A stretch of 27,285 nucleotides of DNA, taken from a virus. Taxonomy: Duplodnaviria; Heunggongvirae; Uroviricota; Caudoviricetes. Each line of letters opens with the position of its first letter. Position 1 is the first letter of the stretch. The position numbers and the translations under genes are program-made. This document shows, in pieces, positions 6,945-26,996 of this stretch. Location of the stretch: the IMG/VR virus record IMGVR_UViG_2724679238_000012, positions 1 through 27,285 of that record; one strand, given 5' to 3'. The notes beneath the pieces were generated by a model. That model was not told the origin of the DNA, ran no database searches, and saw only the letters and a list, made by a program, of their open reading frames with translations.

Positions 6945-8207
6945 ATGAGCACTTCAGCACAAAACCAATCAATCGAAAATGTATGTATCCCTGATGTCCT
7001 GAATGCCGGTATCCCGGCCATTATCCAGAACATCCGGGCCGCGCAACGCCGCGTTAGTTGTGATGACCTCACAGCACGTTTTTTTGATAATGCGGTTCAG
7101 TCAGCGGAGATGCTTCATGCACAGCTTATTGATGTTTATAACGCAGAAGCTGATAGCCATAACTCCCTGGTAGATGCAGCTGAAAATATGCAGTTGGATC
7201 TCGGTCTGAAGGGTAAAGAAATTGAAGAGCTTCAGCTGGAAATTGAACATTTGAAACGCCAGCAACAGGACGCGATCGACGATGCGACGCATGACGCCAA
7301 CCAGCGTGCTGATAATGCCGAACGTATAAGCATTGAGCTGGAAACAAAACTCAATGAAATGACTGCGATGGTTGAACTGCGGAACTCACAGATTTCAACG
7401 CTAAAATCTCAATATAAAGAGATCATGAAACTTGATCCTTTTAACCTTGAGAAACGCTATAACAAAGCTAAAAGCGAGCGACAGGAACTGCGTAAGCAGG
7501 TCGCCGACCTTAACCAACAGCTCAAAAAAACTATTAAAGATGCAAGCGAGGCGCGCGTGGCATTTGCTAATAAAAAAGCAGAGGTTACCGCGCTGGTTAA
7601 TGAGAATGCCAAATTTGCGACGCTCAAGAAGGAAATGTATGGCATTACTGAGCGCCGTTTCCCTGCAAGCAAACTTCATCCGACGTTAGGGCAAATCTCC
7701 TTCTTCCCGCGCCTCCTGGCTTATGGGATCTCATCGCCTAAAGAGTTCAATAACGAGCGTCCTTATATCGTTTCTAAGCTGGACTTTGCTTATCAGTTCT
7801 GCTGCGACATGGGCTATGCCATTGATATCCGAATCAACGAATGGTTGATGCCAAACTTCCAGCCGTTGGCAATTTTCCGCGAGTTCCAGCCGGAAGGTTG
7901 GGTAGAGTTCTTCCATGAATTGATCTGTAAAGAGATGGAAAGCCGTCGCCCGGAATTGGTCCGTCGAGTTGAGTGGGAGCAAGAGGTTATGTTGGCAGAT
8001 GCAGAGCTGCCGTTCGAACCGGAATTCATTGATGATCTGGCAACTAAAGGGCTGCATACCCTGTTTGATGTGGTTACCCGCCGTCATGAGCAGTTGGTTG
8101 TCGAATTGGGTTTAGAGGAAACTGCGGCAAGAAGACTTCTCGATGTTTGCTATGCACGTAGCGATGCATGGGAAAAAGAGAACGGCGGCACTATTTACGT
8201 TCGCTGA
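6945..8207 (+). CDS. Hypothetical protein: central coiled-coil (about aa 80-230) plus uncharacterised C-terminal domain
   Basis: 420-aa ORF preceded by C1 operator pair and a ~230-nt leader; heptad-like E/K/Q-rich segment; terminator immediately downstream. Confidence 0.6.
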   Translation: MSTSAQNQSIENVCIPDVLNAGIPAIIQNIRAAQRRVSCDDLTARFFDNAVQSAEMLHAQLIDVYNAEADSHNSLVDAAENMQLDLGLKGKEIEELQLEIEHLKRQQQDAIDDATHDANQRADNAERISIELETKLNEMTAMVELRNSQISTLKSQYKEIMKLDPFNLEKRYNKAKSERQELRKQVADLNQQLKKTIKDASEARVAFANKKAEVTALVNENAKFATLKKEMYGITERRFPASKLHPTLGQISFFPRLLAYGISSPKEFNNERPYIVSKLDFAYQFCCDMGYAIDIRINEWLMPNFQPLAIFREFQPEGWVEFFHELICKEMESRRPELVRRVEWEQEVMLADAELPFEPEFIDDLATKGLHTLFDVVTRRHEQLVVELGLEETAARRLLDVCYARSDAWEKENGGTIYVR

Positions 8208-8226
8208 TAGTTACAGTGTCACTTTT

Positions 8227-8262
8227 AATGCTGGTGGAGTGCTCCCACCAGCATTTTTTTCG
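8227..8262 (+). terminator. Rho-independent terminator (aatgctggtgg / ccaccagcatt + T7)
   Basis: 11-bp stem with 6-nt loop followed by ttttttt, seen directly; contains a Chi octamer. Confidence 0.7.
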
Positions 8263-8279
8263 TCCAATGAGGAGGGCAT

Positions 8280-8786
8280 TTGAGTATTTTCAATAAACAC
8301 GCACACCAGGAACGTCCGTACATCGTCATAGTAGATATTGATGGGACGATATCAGAGGCAACGGAAGACAGGCTGCATTTACTTCCACCACCTGGCAAAG
8401 GTGCATTAACAGAGCACTGGAACGAGTTTAACCTTGCCTGTGACACTGATGCTCCCATCACTCCAGTTATTGATATGGTGCGCCAGTTGTCCGGCATTTA
8501 CACCCTCTGGTTTGTAACCGGGCGCTGTGAGATAGCCAGGGATAAAACACGAGCTTGGTTGCGTAAGCACGTAACAAATGGGGCGGAGCCTTTGCTATCT
8601 ATGCGTCCTGCCACCGATGACAGAAATGACGGTCCAGCAAAGATTGATCTCCTGAAGAAAATTGGTCTAAGTAAAATTGCGTTCGCGCTGGAAGATAAGA
8701 TTGAAGTGGCGCGTGTTTTCAGGAGTCACGGCGTACTTACGTTAATGGTCAGGGAGTATGAAAACGCGCTTCTCCATCAACAATAA
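8280..8786 (+). CDS. HAD-superfamily phosphatase-like protein (motif I DIDGT)
   Basis: 168-aa ORF with TTG start 5 nt after GAGGAGG; IVIVDIDGTIS matches HAD motif I (hhhhDxDGT). Confidence 0.6.
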   Translation: MSIFNKHAHQERPYIVIVDIDGTISEATEDRLHLLPPPGKGALTEHWNEFNLACDTDAPITPVIDMVRQLSGIYTLWFVTGRCEIARDKTRAWLRKHVTNGAEPLLSMRPATDDRNDGPAKIDLLKKIGLSKIAFALEDKIEVARVFRSHGVLTLMVREYENALLHQQ

Positions 8787-8802
8787 TTGCTCTAATAAAT
8801 CT
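8786..8802 (+). promoter_or_regulatory. C1 operator (ATTGCTCTAATAAATCT, 16/17)
   Basis: Starts at the last base of the stop codon of the HAD-like gene; followed by TTGATT. Confidence 0.7.
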
Positions 8803-8884
8803 TGATTTTTAAAACAGAGAAAGTGAAAATAAAAACATGCCGTAAGGCGCGGCATGTATCCAATCAATCACAGGAGCTGAAAAT

Positions 8885-25059: not shown

Positions 25060-25385
25060 AAGGTTGCGCTACGTAAAATCTGCGAAATGTTGGCAGTGTT
25101 AGTGCTCCAGATTTCGCGTAGCGCACTTAGCACCACCAATCAATCAGAGGTGAAAAATGGGATATTCAACTGCTAAAGTGTCCACTCATCTTGAGCTTGA
25201 GAAAAACCGTGGTTACTGGCGGGCAAAAGGGTTTGATCGTGATAGTAGTCAACTGTCATTATCGCGCGGTGAAGAGAAAATAGAACGCACGCGCGGTCGC
25301 TGGCGTTTCTATGACGAGAACCATAAACAGGTAAAGGCAGAGCCGATCCTGTACACTTTACTTAAAACCATTATCTGAGTGTTAG

Positions 25386-26417
25386 ATGTCCAATTTACTG
25401 ACCGTACACCAAAATTTGCCTGCATTACCGGTCGATGCAACGAGTGATGAGGTTCGCAAGAACCTGATGGACATGTTCAGGGATCGCCAGGCGTTTTCTG
25501 AGCATACCTGGAAAATGCTTCTGTCCGTTTGCCGGTCATGGGCGGCATGGTGCAAGTTGAATAACCGGAAATGGTTTCCCGCAGAACCTGAAGATGTTCG
25601 CGATTATCTTCTATATCTTCAGGCGCGCGGTCTGGCAGTAAAAACTATCCAGCAACATTTGGGCCAGCTAAACATGCTTCATCGTCGGTCCGGGCTGCCG
25701 CGACCAAGTGACAGCAATGCTGTTTCACTGGTTATGCGGCGGATCCGAAAAGAAAACGTTGATGCCGGTGAACGTGCAAAACAGGCATTGGCGTTCGAAC
25801 GCACTGATTTCGACCAGGTTCGTTCACTCATGGAAAATAGCGATCGCTGCCAGGATATACGGAATCTGGCATTTCTGGGAATTGCTTATAACACCCTGTT
25901 ACGTATAGCCGAAATTGCCAGGATCAGGGTTAAAGATATCTCACGTACTGACGGTGGGAGAATGTTAATCCATATTGGCAGAACGAAAACGCTGGTTAGC
26001 ACCGCAGGTGTAGAGAAGGCACTTAGCCTGGGGGTAACTAAACTGGTCGAGCGATGGATTTCTGTCTCTGGTGTAGCTGATGATCCGAATAACTACCTGT
26101 TTTGCCGGGTCAGAAAAAATGGTGTTGCCGCGCCATCATCCACCAGCCAGCTATCAACTCGCGCCCTGGAAGGGATTTTTGAAGCAATTCACCGATTGAT
26201 TTACGGGGCTAAGGATGACTCTGGCCAGAGGTACCTGGCCTGGTCTGGACACAGTGCCCGTGTCGGAGCCGCGCGAGATATGGCCCGCGCCGGAGTTTCA
26301 ATACCGGAGATCATGCAAGCTGGTGGCTGGACCAACGTAAATATTGTCATGAACTATATCCGTAATCTGGATAGTGAAACGGGGGCAATGGTGCGCCTGC
26401 TGGAAGATGGTGATTAG
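25386..26417 (+). CDS. cre: Cre site-specific tyrosine recombinase
   Basis: 343-aa product MSNLLTVHQNLPALPVDATSDEVRKNLMDMFRDRQAFSEHTWKMLLSVCRSWAAWCKLNNRKWFPAEPEDVRDYLLYLQARGLAVKTIQQHLGQLNMLHRRSGLPRPSDSNAVSLVMRRIRKENVDAGERAKQALAFERTDFDQVRSLMENSDRCQDIRNLAFLGIAYNTLLRIAEIARIRVKDISRTDGGRMLIHIGRTKTLVSTAGVEKALSLGVTKLVERWISVSGVADDPNNYLFCRVRKNGVAAPSSTSQLSTRALEGIFEAIHRLIYGAKDDSGQRYLAWSGHSARVGAARDMARAGVSIPEIMQAGGWTNVNIVMNYIRNLDSETGAMVRLLEDGD recognised as Cre; starts 436 bp from the loxP centre. Confidence 0.97.
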   Translation: MSNLLTVHQNLPALPVDATSDEVRKNLMDMFRDRQAFSEHTWKMLLSVCRSWAAWCKLNNRKWFPAEPEDVRDYLLYLQARGLAVKTIQQHLGQLNMLHRRSGLPRPSDSNAVSLVMRRIRKENVDAGERAKQALAFERTDFDQVRSLMENSDRCQDIRNLAFLGIAYNTLLRIAEIARIRVKDISRTDGGRMLIHIGRTKTLVSTAGVEKALSLGVTKLVERWISVSGVADDPNNYLFCRVRKNGVAAPSSTSQLSTRALEGIFEAIHRLIYGAKDDSGQRYLAWSGHSARVGAARDMARAGVSIPEIMQAGGWTNVNIVMNYIRNLDSETGAMVRLLEDGD

Positions 26418-26434
26418 CCGTCAATGCATAGGAA

Positions 26435-26451
26435 ATTGCTCTAATTGTTTG
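26435..26451 (+). promoter_or_regulatory. C1-operator-like site downstream of cre (ATTGCTCTAATTGTTTG, 12/17; Op2 position)
   Basis: First 11 bp match the consensus; located 18 nt after the cre stop and upstream of the next ORF. Confidence 0.5.
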
Positions 26452-26467
26452 ATATTTATGGTGGCAT

Positions 26468-26779
26468 ATGAGAAAGGATTTCAACATCGACGGAAAATAT
26501 GTAGTGCTGTCTGTAAGCACTAATATTCAGTCGCCAGCCGTCATTGTCACTGTAAAGTTGAGCGATAGAATGCCTGATATTGACTCAATATCTGTTGCGT
26601 TCCCTGTCAAAAGTATGCGTAGTGCTGAACATTTCGTGATGAATGCCACCGAGGAAGAAGCACGGCGCGGTTTTGCTAAAGTGATGTCTGAGTTTGGCGA
26701 ACTCTTGGGTAAGGTTAACAATGTCCTTTCAATCAGTTCAGCAAGGTTCAAAGCGTTAACAGCTTCCATGATGAAATAA
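26468..26779 (+). CDS. Small hypothetical protein at the position of P1 cra (identity unverified)
   Basis: 103-aa ORF immediately downstream of cre and an operator-like site. Confidence 0.45.
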   Translation: MRKDFNIDGKYVVLSVSTNIQSPAVIVTVKLSDRMPDIDSISVAFPVKSMRSAEHFVMNATEEEARRGFAKVMSEFGELLGKVNNVLSISSARFKALTASMMK

Positions 26780-26996
26780 AAAAAAGCCTGGCAAGTAGCC
26801 AGGCTGCACAAAAAAGCGGGTTTGTATTCCGCATCCAATCAATCAAGAAGGAGTATAGCACACAGGTGCCGAAGTGAAAGAATGTGATTCTCGATAAAAA
26901 AATAAAAAATGCCATTGTTCTAATTTATTGTTATAATTAAGCGATGGCATTAGTCAACTACGAAGACATGGCCATTGCCTGCTTCTTGAAATCATT

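Follow-up and report, generated by a model that had tools for sequence, protein, structure and literature searches.

Why does an 11-nucleotide (nt) word, CCAATCAATCA, recur on one strand of a phage-plasmid, in several places close to a start codon? The question was raised by an initial annotation of IMG/VR virus record IMGVR_UViG_2724679238_000012, made from the DNA letters alone, and is addressed here for positions 1 to 27,285 of that record (27,285 nt; referred to as the window). The initial annotation treated four copies of the word as equivalent plus-strand sites. Three of them indeed resemble targets, but the copy at 26835 probably marks something else, namely an unannotated trans-acting small RNA that we predict to be encoded on the minus strand between c8 and the ref operator, from approximately 26845 to 26778. 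All support for this small RNA circuit is computational.

The window represents a P1-like phage-plasmid (Punavirus) and is 96-98% identical to P1 across the common parts. The richly annotated record AF234172 was used as the P1 reference annotation. Compared with P1, the window has an added type I hsdRSM cassette past a small open reading frame (ORF) described below, and it lacks ref. P1 has long served as a model phage; Cre-lox comes from it, and it is the prototype of the phage-plasmids bearing resistance genes in Enterobacterales. The comparison covers six P1-like lineages with PmgS identity down to 52%. Cronobacter phage JK004 was used as a diverged relative (54% identity to the Cra protein and 69% to the PmgS protein of the window), and further lineages were drawn from IMG/VR (L094-L098) and public assemblies (L110 and L112; PmgS identity of 52%). 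A search of genome contigs with Cra returned near-identical relatives only, and a close relative of the Pantoea-type lineage was not found in PLSDB.

Recurrence of the 11-mer

Over the whole window, exact copies of CCAATCAATCA occur on the plus strand at 8860-8870, 25136-25146, and 26835-26845, and a copy matching at 10 of 11 positions, CCAATCAATCG, occurs at 6965-6975 on the same strand. The minus strand of the window holds no copy at up to one mismatch. A motif search thereby re-found three of the copies reported initially; the remaining exact copy had been placed at 8870-8880 and lies in fact at 8860-8870, ending 14 nt before the ATG (8885) of the small ORF. The whole of P1 has the same three exact copies as the window and no further ones. 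On the P1 map, the four copies fall in codons 7-10 of pmgS, in the leader past the C1 operator Op88/OpmgT and its predicted promoters, before cra, and in the interval separating c8 from the ref operator.

Recurrence by itself is weak evidence, because in 29% of 200 dinucleotide-preserving shuffles of the window a single strand carries some 11-mer at least three times (78% when either strand is allowed); the chance expectation of about 0.01 given initially was thus overstated. When CCAATCAATCA is treated as a prespecified word, four matches at up to one mismatch compare with 0.82 expected, and none of 100 shuffles reached four, with the caveat that the word was picked after inspection. Other triple 11-mers in the window are the C1 operators, words containing the Escherichia coli Chi octamer GCTGGTGG (at 2106, 2232-2243, and 8227-8238 on the plus strand and at 8245 on the minus strand), and one coding-sequence coincidence, the last two being the sole other nonoperator triples. 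Around the four copies of CCAATCAATCA, no homology was found past 11-13 nt, and they are therefore not remnants of a duplicated segment. We judge the motif to be real from its position (in noncoding sequence or at translation starts, always in the sense orientation) and from its conservation in diverged relatives.

A candidate small RNA gene beside c8

Searching for an RNA complementary to the 11-mer, as had been suggested initially, yielded a candidate on the minus strand at 26835-26845, at the c8-proximal copy itself. The predicted elements are as follows.

26778-26845, minus strand: predicted small RNA of about 67-68 nt, 5′-UGAUUGAUUGGAUGCGGAAUACAAACCCGCUUUUUUGUGCAGCCUGGCUACUUGCCAGGCUUUUUUUU-3′
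26852-26860, minus strand: extended -10 element TGcTATACT (TG at 26860-26859, hexamer at 26857-26852), read from the sequence, with no good -35 element
26835-26845, minus strand: seed UGAUUGAUUGG, the 5′ end of the small RNA, unpaired in the minimum free energy fold
26816-26832, minus strand: hairpin 1, a GCGG/CCGC stem, followed by U6 at 26810-26815
26778-26805, minus strand: intrinsic terminator, an 8-base pair (bp) GC-rich stem at 26785-26805 with a U run (U7-8) at 26778-26784

The seed starts about 6-8 nt past the -10 hexamer, after the spacer ccttct. Read on the plus strand, this spacer is the AAGGAG after which the initial annotation had seen no ORF, and it would then not be an orphan ribosome site. 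The hairpin noted initially at this end of the window (26785-26805) was correctly seen, although it acts as a minus-strand terminator in our prediction, and its counterpart near the small ORF, given as 8846-8866, is located at 8835-8857. The 3′ end of the small RNA abuts the stop codon of c8, which makes the arrangement convergent. A terminator scan reported the minus-strand terminator in the window and likewise terminators on the small RNA strand in JK004 and L130. Because c8, ref, and mat of P1 are all on the plus strand, this terminator is an orphan that serves no protein gene.

The same anatomy was found again in JK004/L116, L117/L118, L127/L128, L119, L125/L126, and L130. In all six lineages, the strand opposite the c8-proximal copy carries TGnTATA(C/G)T, then 6-7 nt, then GAUUGAUUG, followed by a hairpin, a linker, and a terminator, giving predicted RNAs of 62-71 nt. 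The -10 element of L130 was scored as promoter-like, with its TG, in a promoter scan. The predicted fold consists of a free 5′ end, a small hairpin, and the terminator, with z = -2.97 in the window; the orthologs in the five other lineages have the same fold architecture, with z = -2.9 to -4.1. Over the six sequences, 100% of the cells of the terminator helix are paired, and two of its eight pairs are changed on both sides. The place of hairpin 1 is fixed in every lineage, and its sequence is lineage-specific and unrelated.

The predicted small RNA contains no conserved ORF, and no Rfam model reached its gathering score at the motif sites or on the small RNA strand; weak subthreshold hits to SorX and MicX were taken as noise. 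Of 5,426 complete E. coli genomes, 609 contain the locus, with 606 places on plasmids. In the 12 records listed for the locus, only neighboring coding sequences lie under the match, and no RNA gene. A literature search, to which subscription-journal papers on P1 were mostly inaccessible, did not find the motif or the seed in a bacterial or phage context, nor a small RNA of P1.

In the P1-like plasmid pTK3888_2 (L124, NZ_AP044772.1, approximately 64873-64913), the small RNA gene is broken inside hairpin 1 by GGGGTCTGACGCTCAGTGG, which we take to be a Tn3-family terminal repeat; TEM-1 adjoins. This plasmid is a natural knock-out of the predicted RNA.

Candidate target sites

The three remaining copies are the candidate targets, and in all three window contexts the motif is predicted to be unpaired.

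8860-8870, plus strand: site A, in the 5′ leader made from the C1-controlled Op88 promoters, between the hairpin at 8835-8857 and the Shine-Dalgarno (SD) sequence AGGAG at 8872-8876
25136-25146, plus strand: site B, directly 5′ of the SD sequence GAGGTG (25147-25152) of cra
6965-6975, plus strand: site D, CCAATCAATCG, inside pmgS (6945-8207), at +21 to +31, codons 7-10

The seed gives 10-13 contiguous pairs at these three sites and finds up to six sites in relatives. Site A, AUCCAAUCAAUCA, forms 13 contiguous Watson-Crick pairs with the seed and is orthologous in all lineages; the gene downstream is a 28-amino acid hydrophobic ORF (8885-8971) that heads the pmgT operon. Site B forms 11 contiguous pairs and lies 10 nt before the ATG of cra (25157-25378), which is just upstream of cre (25386-26417). 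It is kept, with diverged flanks, in JK004, L095/L117, L119, L127, and L130. At site D, the nucleotides C-CAA-TCA-ATC are kept across the lineages examined, even at synonymous positions, the Pantoea type having AAUCAAUCAAUC instead. The amino acid encoded just before site D varies (AAC/AGC/CAC), and the third-position C of that codon is kept wherever the seed ends in GG. In the P1 group, sites A and D are downstream of annotated C1-controlled operators.

The 28-amino acid ORF, MNTAFKIIMAAIYFWLFSITFGGIVAHG, is on the plus strand, has a good SD sequence, and is unannotated in AF234172; the JK004-type and L095-type lineages likewise carry a small hydrophobic ORF at this position. The product of the 28-amino acid ORF could be a membrane-active peptide. 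The hairpins located 5′ of site A and of a further site, site E, found in relatives (window 8835-8857; JK004, L094, L095, and L110) are alike within and between lineages, with the pattern GGCCGC-ACGCWUYA-GCGGCC and a compensatory GGCCAC/GUGGCC variant in the L095 leader. The leader hairpins of site E come after extended -10 promoters (TGnTATATT). The hairpin at sites A and E may be part of a regulated leader.

Two further places were noted in P1. The repA gene of P1 (AF234172, 62620-62630, minus strand) starts with ATGAATCAATCATTT, in which AAUCAAUCA at +4 to +12 is complementary to the seed; this was not seen at repA in JK004 and may be due to chance. The complement at the lpa stop codon of P1 (TGATTGATTGC followed by a hairpin, 90441) was considered as a small RNA from a 3′ untranslated region and rejected, as it is absent from the window and JK004. 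The 3′ end of lpa and the sequence that follows differ between the window (17560-17700) and P1 (90400-90470), with another C terminus and another hairpin. Scans of the window, P1, and JK004 that allowed G-U pairs did not find a second conserved locus complementary to the motif.

Conservation of the motif in diverged relatives

The core of the motif, CAATCAATC, stands at the same sites in six diverged lineages while the flanking sequences diverge, always on the gene-sense strand. A count in P1-like genomes had been proposed initially: the 1.7 Mb of P1-like loci examined hold 90 exact copies in the sense orientation and none in antisense. In JK004, the motif is found five times exactly and once at 10/11, always gene-sense and with diverged flanks; four are at sites orthologous to those of the window, one precedes a small membrane-protein gene (site E), and one abuts the ATG of a Ref homolog. 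In L094-L098, L110, and L112, CAATCAATC is kept at sites A, D, and E, with diverged flanks. Sites added in relatives concern ref, the small membrane-protein gene of site E, and a ParM-like gene. The targets of the Pantoea type have lost the first C and read AAUCAAUCAAUC, and the tract at site D is longer in the most distant lineage, (AATC)3-4.

These data bear on the notion that the 11-mer recurs by chance. The frequency of triple 11-mers in shuffled windows speaks for it, but comparative data already refute it: with orthologous sites in six diverged lineages, diverged flanks, and a 90:0 strand bias, its likelihood is practically nil. Among the options named in the initial annotation, it is the target site of a small RNA or a translational control element that the comparative evidence favors.

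The number of CAAT units ranges from 2.5 to 4.5 among lineages and also varies in two of 86 P1-like loci. A phase-variable CAAT tract of the Haemophilus type was considered and rejected, given this small number of units and the location of most tracts outside ORFs.

A translational control element need not involve an RNA acting in trans. The motif could instead be purely cis-acting, as a translational enhancer or ribosome standby site in which a G-free, unstructured (CAAU)n tract extends from the hairpin to the SD sequence; the epsilon element of the T7 gene 10 leader offers a comparison. Consistent with this, the motif is predicted to be single-stranded and, at sites A, B, and E, stands directly before the SD sequence; in JK004, L116, and L130, it adjoins the start codon (ATG) of ref without any SD sequence, and the repeat number varies. 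However, an unstructured tract would not need exact identity over 9-10 nt in lineages whose proteins are only 52% identical. Complementarity to rRNA is also no better than that of shuffled motifs: 16S, 23S, and 5S rRNA contain no 7-mer complement of the motif, and the best duplex, of -10.1 kcal/mol as computed for the comparison with shuffles, is matched by 25% of shuffled motifs. A cis element alone further leaves unexplained the minus-strand promoter and terminator at the c8-proximal copy, the missing ORF there, and the lineage-specific co-variation described below. We consider a purely cis-acting element unlikely; the enhancer and the small RNA are compatible models and not mutually exclusive.

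Co-variation of seed and targets

The 3′ flank of the seed co-varies with the flanks of the targets.

JK004: RNA past the core seed, ..UUGGCUU; target flank, (AA)GCCAAUC
L095 type: RNA past the core seed, ..UUGGUUU; target flank, AAACCAAUC
Window: RNA past the core seed, ..UUGGAU; site A, AUCCAAUC, with 13 contiguous pairs

The Pantoea type allowed an expectation to be formed beforehand, because targets that have lost the first C and read AAUCAAUCAAUC should go with a correspondingly extended seed. When the Pantoea-type contig was followed to c8, the RNA was indeed found to start with GAUUGAUUGAUUA, that is, (GAUU)3. This RNA forms 12-13 contiguous pairs at five of its own six sites, which include a new one before a ParM/StbA-like gene, as compared with at most 10 for the RNA of any other lineage. 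Of 21 sites from six lineages, 13 had their strictly longest Watson-Crick run with the cognate RNA, four gave a tie, and four were not matched best by it. Cognate duplex energies were -13.4 to -22.8 kcal/mol, for 14 sites in four lineages where RNA and sites come from one contig or genome.

Co-variation also weighs on two other accounts of the motif. According to the first, the motif is the site of a sequence-specific protein, of phage or host origin and acting on RNA or DNA, and the minus-strand features at the c8-proximal copy are coincidental or antisense to c8 read-through. A direct tetranucleotide repeat with a variable number of units could suit a multimeric binder, and sites A and E lie at +20 to +35 from predicted early promoters. 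Yet the motif is strictly sense, its position is tied to start codons and not to promoters, and a protein site does not predict that the c8-proximal locus would co-vary with distant sites. Inspection by eye against consensus sequences gave no convincing match to an IHF site, a C1 operator, or the -22 box of late promoters. A protein site is, in our assessment, very unlikely.

According to the second, it is a host small RNA, OmrA, that pairs with the sites; nt 10-18 of its conserved 5′ region, AUUGAUUGG, are complementary to CCAAUCAAU. OmrA of E. coli K-12 (L006, 2976102-2976189) contains AUUGAUUGG, OmrB has one mismatch to it, and the nine contiguous pairs lie inside the region that OmrA uses on its known targets. 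On the other hand, OmrA lacks complementarity to the conserved positions 10-11 of the motif (CA), the target flanks specific to each lineage (G, AAA, AU) follow the phage RNA instead, and the loss of the first C in the Pantoea type weakens pairing with OmrA yet fits the (GAUU)3 RNA of that lineage. That OmrA is the partner for which the sites are kept is highly improbable; cross-talk with OmrA is possible as a secondary effect. In the seed of the predicted phage RNA, nt 3-11 are identical to the nonamer AUUGAUUGG, and cross-regulation in either direction is conceivable.

Several observations weigh against a small RNA encoded beside c8. Its predicted promoter has no recognizable -35 element, and the window copy fails the strict -35 rule of the promoter scan. 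Hairpin 1 of the P1 group has only 4 bp, and in the predicted folds of the non-P1 lineages nt 8-10 of the seed join hairpin 1, so that about 7 nt stay free. At site D of the P1 group, site A of L095, and site B of L127 and of L119, the RNA of another lineage fits equally well or better. Site D lies past the usual window for direct ribosome occlusion. Site A is altered in seven of 86 P1-like loci (approximately 8%), two of which have one CAAT unit fewer, meaning that the constraint is long-term and not absolute over short times. Finally, the lineages are few and akin, and the counts are not independent events.

Proposed mechanism and role

We propose that the small RNA would be transcribed from the extended -10 promoter and that its first 10-11 nt, UGAUUGAUUGG, would serve as a single-stranded seed. 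This seed would pair with CCAAUCAAUCA in three mRNAs of the window, namely those of the 28-amino acid ORF/pmgT operon, cra, and pmgS. Pairing beside the ribosome-binding site would be expected to lower translation by blocking binding of the 30S subunit, which is the usual outcome of pairing at -25 to -11, and pairing within pmgS could possibly promote decay. Hfq may assist; the U-rich linker and the U tail are no more than suggestive of this.

The targets belong to the early genes or neighbor the C1 immunity region, and the RNA gene adjoins c1-coi-lox-cra-cre-c8. The RNA may thus form a post-transcriptional layer over C1-controlled early genes; a role in damping the leakiness of early genes in the lysogen, or in establishing lysogeny, is plausible but speculative. 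To judge from these sequences, P1 appears to hold a second RNA-based control circuit beside C4, one that reaches the cra-cre operon. If true, the sites in the phage's own mRNAs (the cra-cre leader, ref, and, in one lineage, a partition gene) add a second layer of RNA control and provide a handle on early-gene control, Cre dosage, and phage-plasmid maintenance. They would also help to account for a short word that is frozen across lineages whose proteins are half diverged.

A much wider role, in which the RNA is the master post-transcriptional arm of lysogeny and plasmid control in the P1 family, seems doubtful to us. It would have the RNA restrain Cra/Cre, Ref, PmgS, partition (ParM-like) functions, and small membrane peptides. 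Read-through from c8, which would be convergent and fully complementary, could titrate the RNA at the lysis-lysogeny decision, and the classical establishment phenotype of c8 could then involve a small RNA. Envelope-stress signaling could enter through OmrA, by AUUGAUUGG acting at the phage sites, or the phage RNA could act on OmrA targets.

Other features of the window

Between pacB and c1 (21749-23348, plus strand), the window carries an additional immunity-I-like module, where P1 has nothing. Two Rfam matches fall in it.

21749-21827, plus strand: isrK, 60 bits
21873-21960, plus strand: C4 antisense RNA, 75 bits

The module also encodes a 73-amino acid ORF (phrog_1426) and a 371-amino acid Ant antirepressor (Pfam ANT and ORF6N), and a word resembling a C1 operator, TGCTCTAATAAA, occurs at 21660. 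The type I restriction-modification cassette, absent from P1, spans 9051-15068 on the minus strand and encodes HsdR (1053 amino acids), HsdS (411 amino acids), and HsdM (520 amino acids). It splits the 28-amino acid ORF from the rest of the pmgT operon, with a junction near 8975. According to the P1 record, the junction sequence is also found downstream of the EcoDXXI and R124 hsd loci, and some IncF plasmids have just the stretch starting at 8892 beside hsdR. At the other end of the window, where ref is absent, homology to P1 ends near position 27020. About 60 nt past a P2ref-like promoter (26909-26937) lies a plus-strand terminator (26997-27014), beyond which a minus-strand ORF fragment (27023-27256) specifies an antirepressor's C-terminal KilAC domain.

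Comparison with known systems

The nearest precedents are the C4 antisense RNA of P1 and P7 (RF01695; c4-icd-ant, immunity I), from the same phage family, and the related CI RNA of P4, which, like the predicted RNA, are phage RNAs directed against phage genes. The likeness to C4 extends to pairing at short sequences just upstream of a ribosome-binding site and to target sequences that are identically repeated. RNase P excises C4 from a longer transcript; C4 folds like a tRNA, has two internal pairing loops, and acts on its own operon. Unlike C4, the predicted RNA would be a primary transcript with a linear seed at its 5′ terminus and dispersed targets up to 20 kb away, and cmscan gave no match to the C4 family (RF01695, clan CL00128) in 24900-27285 at E ≤ 10.

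Antitoxin RNAs of type I toxin-antitoxin systems that act near the ribosome-binding or standby site, such as IstR-1/tisB, likewise pair just upstream of an SD sequence, with small hydrophobic peptides encoded behind a structured leader. Small hydrophobic peptides are also encoded downstream of site A (28 amino acids) and, in relatives, of site E (about 52 amino acids). Unlike in those systems, the RNA gene is not located beside these ORFs, and the cra, pmgS, ref, and ParM-like targets are not toxins. DicF, StxS, and svsR, small RNAs of E. coli prophages, are also carried by temperate phages. According to published abstracts, prophage small RNAs characterized to date chiefly regulate host mRNAs or other phages, whereas the predicted RNA has conserved targets in its own genome.

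In its design, the predicted RNA resembles RybB and OmrA/OmrB, which have a seed at the 5′ end, one or more hairpins, a terminator with a U tail, and multiple targets at or near ribosome-binding sites; these RNAs also have their own promoter, for which the extended -10 element is the candidate here. It differs from them in being phage-borne and in having the phage's own genes as targets; the predicted RNA does not match the OmrA-B model (RF00079; conserved 5′ end CCCAGAGGUAUUGAU), and only the 9-mer AUUGAUUGG is common to both. By analogy, we suggest that the predicted RNA works like an enterobacterial small RNA with a 5′ seed, such as RybB or OmrA, and that within P1 it would act as C4 does.

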